64,000 nt of DNA from Bacteroidaceae bacterium (GTDB lineage Bacteria > Bacteroidota > Bacteroidia > Bacteroidales > Bacteroidaceae), in contig JAZRCG010000010.1 in NCBI GenBank assembly GCA_045659645.1, forward strand, positions 57,391 to 121,390, written 5' to 3'. A program made the position numbers and the translations under genes. Of this stretch, positions 24,858-46,840 are shown one piece after another (position 1 is the stretch's first letter; every line of letters starts with the position of its first letter). Under the pieces are notes generated by a model that searched no databases, was not told the origin of the DNA, and saw only the letters and a list, made by a program, of their open reading frames with translations.

Positions 24858-25050
24858 AACGTTTATCGTTTAACGTTTAACGTTTAACGTTTGTCGTTTA
24901 TCGTTGTGCGGTGTGCCGTTGTGACGGTAGGGACGCTGCGTGCAGCGTCCGCAAAAGAATAGGGTGGGGTGATTCGGGCGCAGCACGCTGCGTCCCTACT
25001 TTCACTGATTGCTTTCAACTTTCAACGTTAATCGTTAATCGTTAATCGTC
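24858..25050. repeat. Mosaic: AACGTTT-type heptamer array / GTAGGGACGC...GCGTCCCTAC inverted-repeat element / TCAAC-TTAATCG array
   Basis: Heptamer array 24858-24905, TIR element 24927-24999, second array 25012-25050. The second array supplies the TAA stop of the amidase gene on the minus strand. The same three-part mosaic recurs at 26222-26362 and 37505-37637. Confidence 0.8.
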
Positions 25051-25458
25051 TCTACCCCCATATTCTGCCTTGGCGTCGAAGCAGGGGCAGGGCTTGTAGC
25101 GGTTCAGGTCGTGGTGTCCAAGCACCAGGGCACGGGGGTAGCGCTGTTTCAGTTCTTCAAGCAGTTTCTTCAGGGTCTGTTTCTGGGCATCGGTTCGCGT
25201 GTCGGCAGGATGTCCCTGTGCATCCAGGCCGCCCTCGTAGCATACCCCTATGGAATGCTTGTTGTGCTCGCGGCAGTGTGCACCGGCAATGCTCTCGGGA
25301 CGTCCCTTCTCTATCGTGCCGTCCCGTCGCACCACATAGTGGTAGCCTATACCGTTCCATCCCAGTTTTCTGTGCCAGGCATCTATCTGCTTGGCGGACG
25401 AGCGTTGCCCGGGTCTTATGCCCGAGCAATGCAAGATGATAAGTGATATTGTTCTCAT
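25042..25458 (-). CDS. N-acetylmuramoyl-L-alanine amidase (Amidase_2 / AmpD-PGRP fold)
   Basis: 138 aa: ILHCSG...AWHRKLGWNGIGYHYVV...GAHCREHNKHSIGVCYEGG, with Zn-ligand His/Cys contexts. Confidence 0.85.
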   Translation of the reverse strand: MRTISLIILHCSGIRPGQRSSAKQIDAWHRKLGWNGIGYHYVVRRDGTIEKGRPESIAGAHCREHNKHSIGVCYEGGLDAQGHPADTRTDAQKQTLKKLLEELKQRYPRALVLGHHDLNRYKPCPCFDAKAEYGGRDD

Positions 25459-25496
25459 TCCAGTCAGTCTTGTGTGTGGATGTGCTTGCGTGCACT

Positions 25497-25595
25497 TTAC
25501 ATGCAGGAGGTCATGCCAAAGGTGGTGGCAATGGCGGTAAGTACAGTGATTACGATGTTGATTACTTTACTCCAGATGTTGTTCTTGTTGTTCAT
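25497..25595 (-). CDS. Tiny single-TM peptide (32 aa), resembles the Bacteroidales 'smalltalk protein' family
   Basis: MNNKNNIWSKVINIVITVLTAIATTFGMTSCM ends 38 nt upstream of the amidase ATG. The track ORF 25497-25742 extends the N-terminus through a repeat. Family name is recalled from RefSeq annotations and has not been verified. Confidence 0.6.
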   Translation of the reverse strand: MNNKNNIWSKVINIVITVLTAIATTFGMTSCM

Positions 25596-25629
25596 TGTTA
25601 TTAGTTTTTTAGTGTGTGTTAAATTTAGG

Positions 25630-25794
25630 GCGACTACTCCAGCGGCAGCGCTGTTTGCTCTGTCCCTCTGCGTCCTTTGCGTCCTTTGCGTCCTTTGCGT
25701 CCTTTGCGTGAGATAAATGATAAGGACGTTTTTGTTTTGCACGCGGAGAGCGCAAAGAGCGCAGAGAATTATTGCCTTTCGTGTTTCTCGCTTG
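25630..25794 (+). repeat. ~150-bp direct repeat, copy 1 (contains a GCGTCCTTT x4 array and a CTCTGCG..CGCAGAG hairpin)
   Basis: Near-identical to 26076-26222 apart from the number of 9-mer units. The internal inverted repeat is CTCTGCGTCCTTTGCG / CGCAAAGAGCGCAGAG. Confidence 0.85.
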
Positions 25795-25842
25795 CGCTGG
25801 AGAGGTCGCGAACTTCGTTACGACAAGAGTGCGCAGAGATTT

Positions 25843-26033
25843 TATCCACCCCCCTCCCCCCTTGCGGGGTACTCGCCCCTGTCTCAGGGGGCGAAGAGGG
25901 TCTTTAGAAGAAGCTGTAAATCTGCTTCTGTACCCTCTGAGGGTCGCACTCCCTCAGTGCGACCCTGGGCAGGGTGATAGCGTTAGCTGTTGTAACTACT
26001 CCCTCCCCTTGTGGGAGGGTTGGGGAGGGGTCC
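25843..26033. repeat. Composite GC-rich element (ATCCACCCCCCTCC module, long structured core, terminal hairpin module)
   Basis: 25885-25975 is homologous to the cores at 23160-23275 and 23352-23466. 25996-26033 (ACTACTCCCTCCCCTTGTGGGAGGGTTGGGGAGGGGTCC) is a hairpin module in minus orientation. Confidence 0.75.
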
Positions 26034-26075
26034 ATCCTTCCTCCTCCCTCTGCGTTCTCCTGTCGCGCGTAGCCT

Positions 26076-26222
26076 GCGACTACTCCAGCGGCAGCGCTGT
26101 TTGCTCTGTCCCTCTGCGTCCTTTGCGGTCTTTGCGTGAGGTAAAAGATAAGAGCGCTTTTGTTTTGCACGCGGAGAGCGCAAAGAGCGCAGAGATTTAT
26201 TGCCATTCGTGTTTCTTGCTTG
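26076..26222 (+). repeat. ~150-bp direct repeat, copy 2
   Basis: Same sequence as 25630-25794 but with 2 instead of 4 GCGTCCTTT units. A third, inverted and shorter copy lies at 31101-31182. Confidence 0.85.
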
Positions 26223-26362
26223 TAGGGACGCCCGTATACCACGAGGAACTTGTTCCCGGACGCTGCACGCAGTGTCCCTACTTTCTTCTCATCGTTCAAC
26301 GTTCAACATTAATCGTTAATCTTTCAACGTTAATCGTTAATCTTTCAACATTAATCGTTATT
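26222..26362. repeat. Mosaic: GTAGGGAC...GTCCCTAC element (26222-26281) plus a TCAACG/TTAATCG array (26291-26362)
   Basis: The element is the reverse complement of 37562-37637 (shared GGGAACAAGTTCCTCGTGGTATA core). The array resembles 25012-25050. Confidence 0.8.
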
Positions 26363-44681: not shown

Positions 44682-44706
44682 ACCAAACAATATTTACACA
44701 GTACTG

Positions 44707-44743
44707 TGCCCCTTCCCTTCATTTTGGGGAGGGGCATGTTTTT
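44707..44743 (+). terminator. Rho-independent terminator
   Basis: TGCCCCTTCCC-TTCATTTT-GGGGAGGGGCA followed by TGTTTTT. Confidence 0.8.
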
Positions 44744-44768
44744 GAGTTGCCAAATAGTATAGGTTCAG

Positions 44769-45476
44769 ATGGCATTATTAAGAAGAGTGCGCAAGTTTAT
44801 CTGCTGGTCAGTGATATTGTTCTTTGCCAGCAGTATATTAGCAGTGTTGGCATACAGGTGGCAGCCTGTAAGGATAACGCCCTTGATGGTGATACGTTGT
44901 TGCCAGCAGATGGGAAGAGGGGAGAAGATACGCCTGAAACACCATTGGGTGGATATGGACAAGGGTATGGTGGCTGATATGCCATTGGCTGTTGTGGCAA
45001 GCGAGGACCAAAGATTTCTGGCCCACAACGGCTTTGATTTTGATGCCATATCCAAGGCATGGGAAGAAAGGCAGAGCGGAAAACGCAAGCGTGGAGCCAG
45101 CACTATCAGCCAGCAGACGGCAAAGAATGTTTTCCTGTGGCCCGGAGGAGGATGGTTCAGAAAAGGTCTTGAGGCATATTTCACTATGCTGATAGAGCTG
45201 ATGTGGAACAAGCACAGGATAATGGAGGTGTACCTGAATGTTATAGAGACCGGTGATGGAATCTATGGCGTGGATGCCGTGGCATGGCAGAATTTCGGTC
45301 GTGGAGCCGACAAGCTGACTAGAGCTAATTGTGCCCTAATAGCCGCCACACTGCCCAATCCATTGAAGTTCAGTTCCAAGAATCCTTCAAGATACATGCT
45401 TAAAAGGCAGACGCAAATCATGCGCCAGATGAGAAACCTGGGCAAGTTGATGTGGGAGGACCAAAACGGGGCCTAA
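44769..45476 (+). CDS. mtgA: Monofunctional biosynthetic peptidoglycan transglycosylase (GT51)
   Basis: 235 aa with an N-terminal TM helix. [28 protein letters not shown] and RKGLEAYFT are GT51 motifs. Confidence 0.85.
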
Positions 45477-45522
45477 TAGTGCTTTTTTGTAAAGTGTACT
45501 TTGCATTTACGCAAAAAAGATG

Positions 45523-45530
45523 TATCTTTG
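45523..45530 (+). promoter_or_regulatory. Bacteroidota -7 box (TATCTTTG)
   Basis: GATGTATCTTTGTGCAC lies 25 nt upstream of the 45555 ATG. Confidence 0.55.
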
Positions 45531-45554
45531 TGCACATAAAATATATTAAGCAAC

Positions 45555-46736
45555 ATGTTAGAAACCTTATTCAGAACACATCGGTACCTGGTGGAACATC
45601 TGGGAGAACCGGTACGCCGTTCTTTGATGGACGAGATAAACTGGAAGGATCGTCTGATAGGAATCAAGGGCAGTCGTGGTGTGGGAAAGACAACTTTCCT
45701 GTTGCAATATGCCAAGGAAAACTTTTCGGTAACCGATAGAAGATGCCTGTACATTAACATGAATAACTTCTTTTTCCAGACATACAGTCTGGTGAAGTTT
45801 GCAGGTGAATTCTATAAGGCTGGCGGTCAGGTTCTGCTTATAGACCAGATATTCAAGCTGTCGGATTGGAGCAATGTCCTACACGAATGCTATGAGAAGT
45901 TCCCAATGCTGAAGATAATATTCACGGGAAGTACCGTGATGAGGCTGAAGGATGAGAACCCGGAACTGAATGGTATATGCCATAGTTACAGCCTGAGAGG
46001 ATTTTCATTCAGAGAGTATTTGAACATGATGGCAGGTACGGACATTCGTCCATATACCTTGCGCGAACTGGAAAACCGCCACGAACGCATAGCCAAGGAG
46101 GTGTGTGAAAAGTGCAATCCTTTGGAGCATTTCCAGGCTTATTTGCATCATGGCTATTATCCTTTCTTTCTGGAGAAAAGAAATTTCAGTGAGAATCTGC
46201 TGAAGGTAATGAACATGATGATAGAGGTGGACATCTTACTGATATATCAGATGGAACAGAAGAATCTGAATAGGATAAAGAAACTTCTGTTTATGTTGGC
46301 AAATGATGGTACAGGAGCACCCAACGTAAGTCATTTGGCTACAGAAGTCCAGACTTCACGAACTACGGTTATGAACTATATGAAGTTTCTGAGCGATGCC
46401 CGTCTGATAAGCCTTGTATACCGTAAGGGAGAGGAGTTCCCAAAGAAACCAGCTCGTTTGCTCCTGCACAATACCAATTTGATGCACGGGCTTTTGCCAG
46501 GACGCGTAAACAGACAGGATATGATAGACTCTTTCTTCCAGAATGCTGTCTGTGGCAAGCACAAGGTCAGTGTGGGTGACAGGTCCAGTACATATATCCT
46601 GGATGGCACCTTGCGTTTCCGACTGCTCAGCGAGGTTCCCAGACGCAAATCCACTGATGTAATCTATGTATGTTCAGATAGGCTGCAGGGAGAGGGACAG
46701 GAGATTCCCTTGTGGATGTTTGGTCTGCTGTATTAA
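45555..46736 (+). CDS. AAA-family ATPase (AAA_14 / DUF4143-like orphan ATP-binding protein)
   Basis: 393 aa with Walker A GSRGVGKTT and Walker B-like LLIDQI. The C-terminal region has a wHTH-like segment (TSRTTVMNYMKFLSDARLI). Confidence 0.7.
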   Translation: MLETLFRTHRYLVEHLGEPVRRSLMDEINWKDRLIGIKGSRGVGKTTFLLQYAKENFSVTDRRCLYINMNNFFFQTYSLVKFAGEFYKAGGQVLLIDQIFKLSDWSNVLHECYEKFPMLKIIFTGSTVMRLKDENPELNGICHSYSLRGFSFREYLNMMAGTDIRPYTLRELENRHERIAKEVCEKCNPLEHFQAYLHHGYYPFFLEKRNFSENLLKVMNMMIEVDILLIYQMEQKNLNRIKKLLFMLANDGTGAPNVSHLATEVQTSRTTVMNYMKFLSDARLISLVYRKGEEFPKKPARLLLHNTNLMHGLLPGRVNRQDMIDSFFQNAVCGKHKVSVGDRSSTYILDGTLRFRLLSEVPRRKSTDVIYVCSDRLQGEGQEIPLWMFGLLY

Positions 46737-46740
46737 AGGG

Positions 46741-46840
46741 GGATAGGAGGGAATAGGAAGATCTAAGAAATCCTAGGAGGACCTAGGAAGTCCTAGGAAT
46801 CATAGGAAGACCGAGGAAAGAATAGGAGGGCTTGAGAGAA
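46741..46840. repeat. 10-bp-period (C)CTAGGARN array, ~10 units
   Basis: ggataggagg gaataggaag atctaagaaa tcctaggagg acctaggaag tcctaggaat cataggaaga ... It begins 5 nt after the ATPase stop. Confidence 0.9.

Follow-up and report, generated by a model that had tools for sequence, protein, structure and literature searches.

Simple sequence repeats of contingency loci and VNTRs usually have units of 1-6 nt, are located in promoters or 5' coding sequence and switch genes on and off. The heptamers of Xanthomonas and Nostoc are tandem 7-nt words at about 100 loci, about 90% of them intergenic, which lie on average 28 nt from the end of the upstream ORF as compared to 160 nt from the next ORF and whose arrays differ in length between close relatives (Rehm et al. 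2015, PMC4692102). The same paper also cites the cyanobacterial STRR heptamers. REP, BIME and REPIN elements are mobilised by RAYT transposases and form mosaic clusters (Nunvar et al. 2010, PMC2817692). BrickBuilt of Porphyromonas gingivalis is a MITE with a minisatellite of a single 23-nt unit; it has a defined leader, a defined tail and terminal inverted repeats, and its distance to coding sequences is 49-591 nt (Klein et al. 2015, PMC4596501). In the 23S rRNA of Coxiella, a selfish, horizontally acquired intervening sequence (IVS) that depends on host transcription carries an ORF for an S23p four-helix-bundle protein, directly preceded by two to three strain-variable tandem heptamers (GACAGAT); the IVS resides in helix 45, and its flanks form the stem at which RNase III cuts it out (Warrier et al. 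2016, PMC4990558).

Here, tandem arrays of short words were analyzed in a window of 64,000 nt, the whole stretch of DNA under study. Its host is described as an uncultured gut Prevotellaceae genome. The initial annotation knew of no described mechanism for these arrays. The Xanthomonas/Nostoc heptamers, the mosaic REP clusters, the Porphyromonas minisatellite MITE and the Coxiella IVS are precedents.

Word arrays and their position relative to stop codons

Using TRF, tandem arrays were detected at essentially all positions at which the initial annotation had placed them (Table 1). At a cut-off score of at least 50, the window contains 14 merged arrays, as compared to a mean of 0.23 and a maximum of 1 in the 30 dinucleotide shuffles that served as chance baseline. 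Within 22 kb, seven or more words of unrelated sequence occur together, their periods being 7, 9, 10 and 14, and the same words are found at three to four loci within the window. The words are not united by a palindromic core.

Table 1. Arrays, hairpin modules and the gene cassette in the window
Feature	Position	Strand	Context
Single GGAAACGGAAAACT word copy	23140-23157	+	Last codons (VETEN) and TGA stop (23155-23157) of xseA; directly adjoins the C-rich hairpin modules separating xseA from xseB
AACGTTT heptamer array, 7.3 units	24855-24905	+	Directly 3' of ilvE terminator hairpin; 52 nt beyond ilvE stop, 21 nt from REP doublet
REP-doublet (REPIN-like) hairpin	24927-24999		GTAGGGACGCTGCGTGCAGCGTCC ... 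GCGTCCCTAC
Heptamer array	25012-25049	-	Amidase sense strand (ATTAACG)3(TTGAAAG)2; contains amidase TAA stop (25042-25044, minus strand)
9-mer-armed inverted-repeat module	25653-25775		Arms GCGTCCTTT (5 units) and AGAGCGCAA (2.3 units)
Further copies of this module	26099-26198; 31097-31184		Second of these inverted
GCGTCCTTT 9-mer arrays (TRF)	25665-25709; 26111-26137		Arms of large inverted repeat upstream of smalltalk gene
Second REP-doublet copy	26205-26285		
Heptamer/21-mer array with TTGCGAAGC module	26289-26392 (7-mer array by TRF: 26289-26360)	-	Ends 2 nt before stop of HU-like gene (26394)
14-mer-like word	30453-30481	+	In C-terminal sorting domain of T9SS cargo gene (ELKGENGNVK)
Composite mosaic	30976-31283	+	14-/7-mer array, C-rich hairpin, inverted 9-mer inverted-repeat module, 14-mer array, second C-rich module
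14-mer arrays (TRF)	30976-31010; 31193-31214; 34857-34887		First two inside 900-nt spacer upstream of S24-like gene
GTGAGTA heptamer array	31296-31366 (TRF: 31303-31363)	+	In same spacer, 141 nt upstream of S24-like gene start; not at a stop
CCTAGGAAGN (CCTAGG-type) decamer array	32341-32450	+	Contains TAG (32359-32361) of S24-peptidase-like gene; 5' bracket of four-helix-bundle cassette
Promoter-less four-helix-bundle 'suffix' gene, S23p / 23S rRNA IVS protein family	32477-33166	+	Last codons and TAG in 3' array
CCTAGGAAGN decamer array	33133-33220 (TRF: 33133-33208)	+	3' bracket of cassette; contains its TAG (33164-33166); proS promoter next
14-mer array (2.2 units), then AACTCTGAA 9-mer array (7.7 units)	34857-34949 (AACTCTGAA by TRF: 34881-34949)	+	Begins 1 nt past proS stop
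GTCTCTAAG 9-mer array	36804-36895	+	In frame in ampG (36229-37512); SKV repeats, central MFS loop
AACGNTN heptamer array	37503-37554	+	Contains ampG TGA stop (37510-37512)
REP-doublet copy	37562-37637		Distal to ampG-end array
Solo CCTAGG-type decamer array	46739-46827	+	Begins 3 nt past AAA_14 ATPase gene stop

The claim that nearly all arrays start within a few nucleotides of a stop codon was overstated. About 8 of the 15 window arrays abut a stop, several occupy large spacers or the 5' side of genes, and one (GTCTCTAAG) is located inside a coding region and not at a gene end. Stop codons are indeed donated by array units, in four genes (S24-peptidase-like, four-helix-bundle, amidase and ampG) and in the echo at the end of xseA. 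In other strains, the ampG ORF reads on into the array at its 3' end, yielding tails such as LTLND and LTINVECLTIND.

CCTAGG decamer arrays were also located in an independent set of metagenomes, at no fewer than 120 loci, a sample of array-bearing loci and not a random genome sample; a stop is found at a distance of 10 nt or less from at least 69 of them and a start from at least 2 (p = 2e-18). Among the matches listed, TAG serves as the abutted stop in 52 of 70 cases, with tails such as ...GKPRKP before the stop. Gene positions in this and the following census were taken from our own simple gene caller. In 1.46 Mb of Bacteroidales DNA, 117 of 159 arrays are intergenic as compared to 18.7 expected, and 19 overlap stops versus 6 that overlap starts. 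Period 7 dominates; the coding arrays have periods of 9, 12, 15 and 18. Heptamer-dominated intergenic arrays are found across Bacteroidales, and the phenomenon is not peculiar to the window. The words do share their positional behaviour, and individual words reappear both at several loci here and in other genomes; they are dispersed families and not local accidents.

Strain variation and module mosaics

All sequences used for comparison were short-read metagenome assemblies. Between strains of the same species (about 96% nucleotide identity) the arrays are VNTR-like. Nearly all indels of at least 3 nt fall in arrays, and their sizes (7/21, 9/18 and 10/20/30 nt) are unit multiples; identity in the strain alignments is 0.86-0.87 in arrays, 0.96 in coding and 0.95-0.97 in other intergenic DNA. 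The near-identical strain L214 has lost one unit of the array next to ilvE and carries five substitutions at the same unit position, with 3 differences in about 270 nt of flanking sequence. The solo array at 46739 differs between strains by 10- and 20-nt indels, and the SKV repeat of ampG varies within one species in steps of three amino acids. Whole units are thus gained and lost by replication slippage or unequal recombination, with internal homogenisation of the arrays. In the sister species L001 and L002, the proS/MFS array is absent and the spacer measures 5-7 nt; the proS/MFS and ampG/coaX arrays, both absent in sister species, are lineage-specific insertions. The ends of orthologous genes keep their solo arrays across different strains and species.

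As first described, the arrays co-localise with GTAGGGAC...GTCCCTAC and CTCTGCG...CGCAGAG elements and form recurring mosaics with hairpin modules. The modules that come and go within or between arrays are a REP-doublet-like element, a 9-mer inverted repeat and C-rich hairpins, and within one species the proS/MFS and ampG/coaX spacers thereby have lengths of 107-534 nt and 116-675 nt, respectively. In strain L088, the same composite of about 277 nt as at 30976 is inserted within the 14-mer array of the proS/MFS junction. A 124-nt composite of array and REP doublet is present more than once in the window, with 83% identity over 124 nt between the 26289 array and, in inverted orientation, the ampG-end array with its REP doublet. 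The REP doublet, whose GTAGG head and palindrome agree with the REPs of PMC2817692, has an AACGNTT array at a distance of 13-26 nt in 11 of 12 matches, one unrelated contig included. At the proS junction of L211, it lacks a flanking AACGNTT; thus, words and modules are not rigidly linked. Neither clear target-site duplications nor conserved array termini were found, a TATTAG/TATAAG pair at proS being weak.

The four-helix-bundle gene of the window is bracketed on both sides by CCTAGG arrays. This gene adjoins such arrays at 20 of the 120 array-selected loci listed and at 0 of 80 control loci (p = 4e-5), and in all three contexts picked by protein similarity alone it is bracketed by 10-nt CCTAGG-like arrays. 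Pairing of the two bracketing arrays is absent from the predicted folds of the cassette.

Explanations for the arrays

On balance, the arrays are probably slippage-prone boundary and landing repeats that belong to a BIME-like mosaic of small mobile modules and are tolerated where genes end. The words would form the minisatellite-like part of a non-coding module mosaic that colonises intergenic DNA in this rumen/hindgut Prevotellaceae species, each word being a dispersed family whose arrays, once present, gain and lose whole units. Arrays abut the stop of the upstream gene, before the terminator, the promoter or the A-rich leader of the next gene. With periods of 7, 10 or 14 nt and a TAA, TAG or TGA in the unit, each of the three frames meets a stop after a few codons, so that an array can take the place of the final codons and provide the stop, and its overlap with a gene end would be tolerated for the same reason. 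The arrays are also the sites at which the REP doublet, the 9-mer-armed inverted repeat, the C-rich hairpins and the four-helix-bundle gene are gained and lost, and may serve as portable homology or landing sites. The modules would then move via array-array recombination or by a transposase acting in trans, with solo arrays as possible empty sites or footprints. The position at stops may reflect targeting or mere tolerance, and deletion bias together with selection against insertions in leaders and promoters could produce it without targeting.

It is unlikely that the arrays are micro- or minisatellites grown independently in situ from chance short duplications, with a bias that merely marks where neutral DNA exists. 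The whole-unit strain indels show that slippage operates, orthologous junctions can hold different words in different species, as with the GACGAAA heptamers of L008 that lie after the AAA_14 ATPase gene where the window has CCTAGG, and a passage of PMC4692102 citing Mrazek 2007 gives polymerase slippage as a proposed source of heptamer excess in other bacteria. However, the same 7-, 10- and 14-nt words occupy several loci within 64 kb and many other genomes, array-plus-hairpin composites recur as units, and one word consistently brackets the four-helix-bundle gene; chance local seeds are therefore inadequate. Of the initial proposal that a common mechanism rather than independent slippage generates the arrays, the part concerning position stands, where simple independent slippage fails, whereas slippage-type change is the demonstrated mechanism of length change.

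We are equally doubtful that the arrays are selected cis-acting 3' UTR or DNA elements. In that role they would stabilise RNA or mark sites of its processing, act as auxiliary terminators or insulators, or bind in tandem a protein such as a nucleoid protein or the four-helix-bundle protein. REP elements near stop codons affect mRNA fate in E. coli. The arrays follow the stop and precede the intrinsic terminator or the leader of the next gene and are therefore transcribed, and solo arrays are retained at orthologous gene ends. Arrays with palindromic cores are predicted to fold as ladder hairpins (z-scores -2 to -6.8), a long one in the RNA of the GTCTCTAAG array. Many words, the 14-mer and GTGAGTA among them, are nevertheless unstructured in the folding predictions, the words are unrelated to each other, and the region shows no excess of terminator-like sites (16 versus 13.1 expected). 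Unit number and sequence are hypervariable, arrays are missing at the same junctions in sister species, and one array lies within a coding region and others upstream of genes. As for strand bias, the CCTAGG arrays do favour the sense strand by 39:13 among the matches listed, but this bias is not distinguishable from a replication-strand effect (p = 0.08 against its 65% expectation).

Repeats made by an enzyme, with a reverse transcriptase, a template-switching polymerase or a repeat-seeding recombinase synthesising words or pasting them at gene ends, are very improbable. The abutment of stops is very sharp, 43 of 105 CCTAGG arrays containing the stop among the matches listed, and the S23p four-helix-bundle fold is also that of Avd, the accessory protein of diversity-generating retroelements. 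The fold search with the four-helix-bundle protein, however, matched the S23p-family structures 2GSC and 2RLD and no retroelement protein, and slippage explains the observed variation. The window has no gene for a transposase, a RAYT, a reverse transcriptase or a recombinase, and apart from one IS3 OrfA in L213 none of the latter three was found in the examined strain loci; retro-type synthesis, a candidate of the initial annotation, thus has no direct support.

An assembly or sequencing artefact has a negligible probability. The window and its relatives all stem from short-read metagenome assemblies, contigs often break near these repeats and many four-helix-bundle contigs are just 1-3 kb long. 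The arrays, however, are shorter than a read, and assemblies made independently in different studies (ENA, Logan and NCBI) contain them with differing unit numbers, the differences being biologically sensible whole units and the reading frames intact.

Comparison with described systems

Like the Xanthomonas/Nostoc heptamers, the arrays are mostly intergenic, nearer to the upstream ORF end, variable in length and dispersed. Those genomes each have one G-rich, quadruplex-forming word, whereas the window has at least seven words, mostly not G4-prone, and its arrays overlap and donate stops and alternate with hairpin modules and a gene cassette. With REP and BIME elements the window shares mosaic clusters in intergenic DNA at gene ends and an inverted-doublet layout with GTAGG head and palindrome (GTAGGGACGC...GCGTCCCTAC). 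Tandem word arrays are, however, not a described BIME component, the phylum here is Bacteroidota, and no RAYT gene was found in the window and strain loci. BrickBuilt, too, is dispersed and strictly intergenic and is built around a copy-variable tandem array in a Bacteroidales genome, but the window arrays have units of 7-14 nt and touch or enter ORFs; no leader, tail or terminal inverted repeat was seen on them, and the BrickBuilt terminal inverted repeat is absent.

The protein encoded at 32477-33166 belongs to the same family as that of the Coxiella IVS, and tandem repeats precede the ORF in both. Unlike the IVS, the window cassette follows the stops of protein genes and is bracketed by direct decamer arrays that are not paired in predicted folds. 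Whole-unit slipped-strand gain and loss, as well as the tolerance of multiple-of-3 periods in coding DNA (ampG SKV), resemble contingency loci, but most window arrays lie 3' of genes and alter the last few residues at most. The ingredients are known, but not their combination, in which length-variable, stop-abutting words are joined with stop donation and with sites of module and gene gain and loss.

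Tandem arrays at gene ends in the window

The window belongs to an uncultured herbivore-gut bacterium of the Prevotellaceae. An exact-match look-up of its ProS gave no match, and the closest ProS loci were found in MAGs from buffalo colon and other ruminants. These share 99% and 97% identity at the amino acid level; since their nucleotide identity is only about 85-87%, they belong to different species.

All degenerate tandem arrays proposed in the initial annotation were reproduced by TRF to within a few nucleotides. They consist of short units in head-to-tail copies, as in VNTRs, and are present beyond chance, 14 merged arrays (score of at least 50) being found in the window as compared to 0.23 expected from 30 dinucleotide shuffles. 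Nearly all of them had been described as starting near a stop codon. Seven arrays, as well as a single word at the end of xseA, indeed touch or contain a stop, and the others are located elsewhere. That array units donate the stop codon itself proved to be real in at least five cases in the window.

Positions of array, hairpin and gene features in the window
Feature	Position (nt)	Remark
REP doublet	24927-24999	head, palindrome and doublet as in REP/REPIN
REP doublet	26205-26285	as above
REP doublet	37562-37637	as above
Array touching or containing stop	25012-25049	amidase
Array touching or containing stop	26289-26392	HU-like gene
Array touching or containing stop	32341-32450	S24-like gene
Array touching or containing stop	33133-33220	four-helix-bundle gene
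Array touching or containing stop	34857-34949	proS
Array touching or containing stop	37503-37554	ampG
Array touching or containing stop	46739-46827	AAA_14 gene
Single word touching or containing stop		xseA end
Array away from stop	24855	after ilvE terminator, 52 nt past ilvE stop
GCGTCCTTT arrays away from stop		arms of large inverted repeat upstream of smalltalk gene
Three arrays away from stop	30976, 31193, 31296	900-nt spacer 5' of S24-like gene
GTCTCTAAG array away from stop		within ampG, in frame (...WHSKVLKVSKVSKVSKVSKVLKDSK...)
xseA, xseB	within 21.9-50.5 kb	
ilvE	within 21.9-50.5 kb	
Amidase / smalltalk / HU-like trio	within 21.9-50.5 kb	minus strand
T9SS cargo protein	within 21.9-50.5 kb	large
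S24-peptidase (LexA-like) gene	within 21.9-50.5 kb	
Four-helix-bundle 'suffix' protein gene	32477-33166	within 21.9-50.5 kb
proS	within 21.9-50.5 kb	
Two MFS transporters	within 21.9-50.5 kb	second AmpG-like
coaX	within 21.9-50.5 kb	
Sialidase / GH20-like gene	38592-44681	2029 aa; within 21.9-50.5 kb
mtgA	within 21.9-50.5 kb	
AAA_14 ATPase	within 21.9-50.5 kb	
PFOR	within 21.9-50.5 kb	

Repeat words were also seen inside genes. The GGTGAAAACGGAAA-type word of the intergenic arrays also encodes the linker of the C-terminal sorting domain (T9SS, 30453-30481), which reads ELKGENGNVK in the window and VETENGKVKTENSE in another strain (L087, about 3800-3900). This word may derive from coding DNA or invade it. 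The xseA product ends with VETEN*. QueA (3119-4456, minus strand) comprises 445 aa and matches the entire 322-position Pfam model, leaving about 100 extra residues; its coding region holds a 22-nt tandem repeat (4148-4201).

Variation between lineages and strains and census in Bacteroidales

In the window, 121 nt filled by arrays separate the proS stop from the next start, as compared to 5-7 nt in the two nearest species. The ampG-coaX spacer amounts to 159 nt, made up of an array and a REP doublet, versus about 30 nt in the sister species L002, from which the last ampG codons also differ. At the AAA_14/PFOR junction, the window carries a CCTAGG array, the comparison locus L008 a GACGAAA heptamer array and the sister species L001 neither of them. 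In these comparisons, the arrays are lineage-specific additions. A target-site duplication TATTAG / TATAAG at the proS insertion was dropped as too weak.

A protein search with AmpG retrieved more than 80 variants of 92-97% identity, whose lengths change in 3-aa steps (415, 418, 421, 424, 427 and 430) and whose central loop contains 2 to 6 SKV units in the alignment. In orthologues of 75-79% identity the central loop is unrelated. In some strains, the C-terminal stop of ampG is read through into the heptamer array, with the ends VKVER*, VKVERLTLND* and VKVERLTINVECLTIND*. The AmpG-variant contigs (L083-L089, L210-L213) represent the window's species, with an identity to the window of 0.96 for coding DNA, 0.95-0.97 for intergenic DNA outside arrays and only 0.86-0.87 for the arrays themselves. 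Almost all indels of at least 3 nt fall within arrays and are multiples of the unit (10/20/30, 7/21 or 9/18 nt), and unit-number polymorphism across strains was therefore confirmed as whole-unit differences in copy number. A near-identical strain (L214) came from an amidase look-up that gave one 1-kb contig only. In the ilvE/amidase spacer, its differences from the window are almost confined to the heptamer array, where one unit is lost and five substitutions are all located at the same unit position, whereas the flanks show three differences in about 270 nt. As the strain indels and the pattern in L214 show, the arrays evolve through slippage or unequal exchange of whole units and are homogenised internally, at a rate far above that of the adjoining DNA.

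Strain variation was also observed outside the arrays. The sialidase / GH20-like gene between coaX and mtgA forms a strain-variable island, which is missing in L083, L086 and L210-L213, where coaX abuts mtgA, and is represented by a different 1826-aa version in L088. The proS promoter region (TTTTGCTTTTCGCTCGCTTAATCGT...CCTTTGCA, 33228-33355) is a tandem duplication with a unit of about 86 nt and a single copy in L088. In L213 (1-350), an IS3-family OrfA transposase gene is located directly upstream of the proS promoter at the contig end.

Furthermore, a census of the window and 80 proS loci of other Bacteroidales (1.46 Mb) was carried out with TRF and a codon-score gene caller. Intergenic DNA makes up 12% of the total and contains 117 of the 159 arrays as compared to 18.7 expected (p ~ 5e-73). 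The commonest period of these intergenic arrays is 7 (51/117), followed by 8, 21 and 9, while most coding arrays show periods of 12, 9, 15 and 18. Called stops were overlapped by arrays 19 times and starts 6 times (p = 0.015); within 10 nt, 32 arrays were found near a stop versus 17 near a start. A stop codon on the sense strand is present in 33 of 41 words near stops versus 31 of 55 other words (p = 0.016). Words of similar sequence recur across distant families: TCAGAATAC, whose counterpart in the window is TCTGAATAC, was found in a Paludibacteraceae MAG as well as in a Prevotella from sheep, and the census contains the word ATTTACG in three loci and GTGAAAA-type words in several.

A palindromic core as common factor was dismissed, as 16 palindromes of at least 6 nt were found among 96 intergenic words versus 13.9 in shuffled units, and so was an excess of intrinsic terminators (16 versus 13.1 expected).

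Hairpin modules, CCTAGG arrays and the four-helix-bundle cassette

In the hairpin GTAGGGACGC...GCGTCCCTAC, a GTAGG head and an imperfect palindrome make up an inverted doublet of the REP type, as judged against a published REP table (PMC2817692). Besides three copies in the 64 kb, it occurs in strain loci and on one unrelated contig. In all DNA compared, the strict pattern placed an AACGNTT-type array 13-26 nt from the doublet in 11 of 12 cases, one of the 11 being on an unrelated metagenome contig. The window's four arrays of this type all carry AACGNTT on the sense strand of the abutted gene, with the doublet on the far side, and a 124-nt block of heptamer array and half doublet is repeated with 83% identity at the HU-like and ampG gene ends.

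Within the species, the spacers range from 107 to 534 nt at proS/MFS and from 116 to 675 nt at ampG/coaX. The length differences correspond to whole modules, namely the REP doublet, a 9-mer-armed inverted repeat and two C-rich hairpins, which enter between or within arrays while the gene-proximal array keeps its place. The recurring mosaics of arrays and hairpins described in the initial annotation are borne out in the manner of BIMEs, with modules recombining in spacers of 107-675 nt in one species. In L088, a composite of about 277 nt (>90% identical to window 30990-31290) lies within the 14-mer array after proS, with 14-mer sequence on both sides; it is present or absent at proS/MFS among strains. 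As regards a MITE, which would carry terminal inverted repeats and a target-site duplication, the arms of the 9-mer module are inverted and a clear target-site duplication was not seen, the flanks being the array itself.

C-rich hairpins were also encountered at two other places. The genes xseA and xseB, which are normally adjacent, are split by about 340 nt of such modules (23158-23499), an insert that starts directly at the xseA stop and carries a duplicated 51-nt block (23217-23267 / 23398-23448). A minus-strand ORF of 1505 aa (15920-20437) comprises an RND efflux permease (residues ~18-1018) and a TolC-like outer-membrane factor (1078-1501). Its junction (residues ~1024-1061) consists of a repeat from the C-rich hairpin family CCCCTCCC...GGGAGGGG (17254-17366) that happens to be open in frame. 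The ORF may represent a genuine fusion or two genes connected through the repeat.

Among the proteins encoded in the 64-kb window, no RAYT (Y1 transposase) or other transposase, reverse transcriptase or recombinase was found. A known RNA family was rejected for arrays and modules: the sole Rfam family in the window is RNase P RNA, bacterial class A (62419-62832, 221 bits), and no array or module in the window matched a covariance model at gathering score.

Scanning metagenomes for runs of three CCTAGGANNN units yielded at least 120 loci, mostly from rumen and herbivore gut. Among the matches listed, 105 CCTAGG arrays have a called gene nearby. A stop is contained in 43 of these arrays and is at most 10 nt away in another 26, as compared to only 2 arrays that are as close to a start (p = 2e-18). 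In the matches listed, it is mostly the purine-rich strand that has the sense orientation (39:13, p = 4e-4), a bias not clearly set apart from a replication-strand effect (p = 0.08 versus the 65% expectation). In 52 of the 70 cases among the matches listed where an array abuts a stop, the stop is TAG. Read in the frame CCT AGG AAG NCC TAG, the repeat encodes PRKx*, and many tails are of the kind ...GKPRKP*, ...GRPRKT* and ...GEARHS*. The arrays are situated after the stop and are followed either by an intrinsic terminator or by the next gene's A-rich leader. Scanning viral contigs for the decamer returned two unrelated high-GC phage contigs only. In a high-GC viral contig from IMG/VR (L082, 9900-10200), unrelated to Bacteroidales, degenerate 10-11-nt repeats of the GGCCGTAGCGG type form a long stretch beside a gene end, three CCTAGGAAGC units among them.

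The gene between the CCTAGG arrays is predicted from profile and fold to encode a four-helix-bundle suffix protein (TIGR04258 / TIGR02436; S23p). It scores 76.7 bits for TIGR04258 (cut-off 40) and 35 bits for TIGR02436 (cut-off 24) in NCBIfam, and 29.6 bits for S23p PF05635, under the cut-off of 33.8. The model (pLDDT 79) has 2GSC and 2RLD of the S23p family as top fold matches (target TM 0.77, weak E = 0.03); a sequence search of the PDB gave no significant match. The gene has no promoter of its own, starting 27 nt past one CCTAGG array and ending within another. Of the 120 array-selected matches listed, 20 have a homologue beside a CCTAGG array, at least 10 of these being flanked by arrays on both sides, whereas the 80 control loci contain no homologue (p = 4e-5). 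The genes next to these homologues vary by locus. As an unbiased test, three homologues were picked on protein similarity alone. They are located in a RidA operon, in a type I R-M system (between its hsdS and hsdR genes) and in a Fic/HIRAN island, and all three are bracketed by CCTAGG-like arrays of 10-nt period with strain-variable unit number. Suffix genes were repeatedly seen between hsdS and hsdR of type I R-M operons with a CCTAGG array after them (L225-L234; L125, L178). The family comprises at least 8000 clusters, mostly on contigs of 1-3 kb.

Possible role of the arrays and comparison with known systems

Overall, our results demonstrate that the arrays are real and hypervariable by whole units, each word being a dispersed family, that they are concentrated against stops and able to donate the stop, and that they are sites of insertion polymorphism of modules and the cassette. 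Words that contain stops and have periods other than multiples of 3 would end any incoming frame within about 8 codons, and insertions closer to the next gene would harm leaders and promoters; arrays may persist at gene ends because of both. The arrays may also serve as portable homology or landing sites for the spread of hairpin modules and the four-helix-bundle cassette.

A wider reading, which we consider rather improbable, would see in the arrays portable sites at which promoter-less cassettes and hairpin modules of an undescribed class attach or recombine. These would colonise the DNA just 3' of stops in gut Bacteroidales and ride host transcription. The S23p-type suffix protein, whose gene is always flanked by CCTAGG decamer arrays, would bind or mobilise the arrays, and the solo arrays, at hundreds of gene ends, would represent its empty sites or footprints. 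If so, the long-enigmatic S23p / 23S-IVS family would gain a role in a mobile system.

The tight CCTAGG bracket round the suffix gene is a concrete and testable lead to the function and mobility of this family, hitherto without an assigned role. For gene-end evolution in the abundant, mostly uncultured gut Prevotellaceae, unstable, strain-variable repeats supply stops and last residues of housekeeping proteins. The arrays should be helpful as hypervariable markers for strain tracking, and are a likely cause of fragmented assemblies and of mis-annotated C-termini or fused ORFs in Bacteroidales MAGs.

Among the closest descriptions of the window mosaic are REP/BIME mosaics (PMC2817692) and BrickBuilt, a minisatellite-bearing Porphyromonas MITE (PMC4596501). 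BrickBuilt of P. gingivalis has a 23-nt unit, leader and tail and the TIR GAGACCTTTGCA / CCGAAAGGTCTC, while the window units measure 7-14 nt; membership was rejected, as the TIR was not found even when 1 mismatch was tolerated. In Coxiella, a selfish intervening sequence in the 23S rRNA carries an ORF for a protein of the S23p family, and strain-variable tandem heptamers lie ahead of this ORF (PMC4990558). The cassette shares with it the protein family and the tandem repeats upstream of the ORF, but has no predicted IVS-like stem. In MFE folds of five cassettes, the 5' array pairs with the 3' array in one and the others fold locally, and an IVS-type element with a flank-paired long stem, unpredicted in four of the five, was rejected. 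The combination of several unrelated words, stop donation, intra-array module traffic and an array-bracketed cassette is found in none of the four systems compared. The fourth, the intergenic heptamers of Xanthomonas and Nostoc, is biased toward the end of the upstream ORF (PMC4692102), and the window arrays show the same bias. This positioning, common to Xanthomonas, Nostoc and Bacteroidales, suggests that bacterial genomes follow a general rule as to where short-period repeats are tolerated or attracted.
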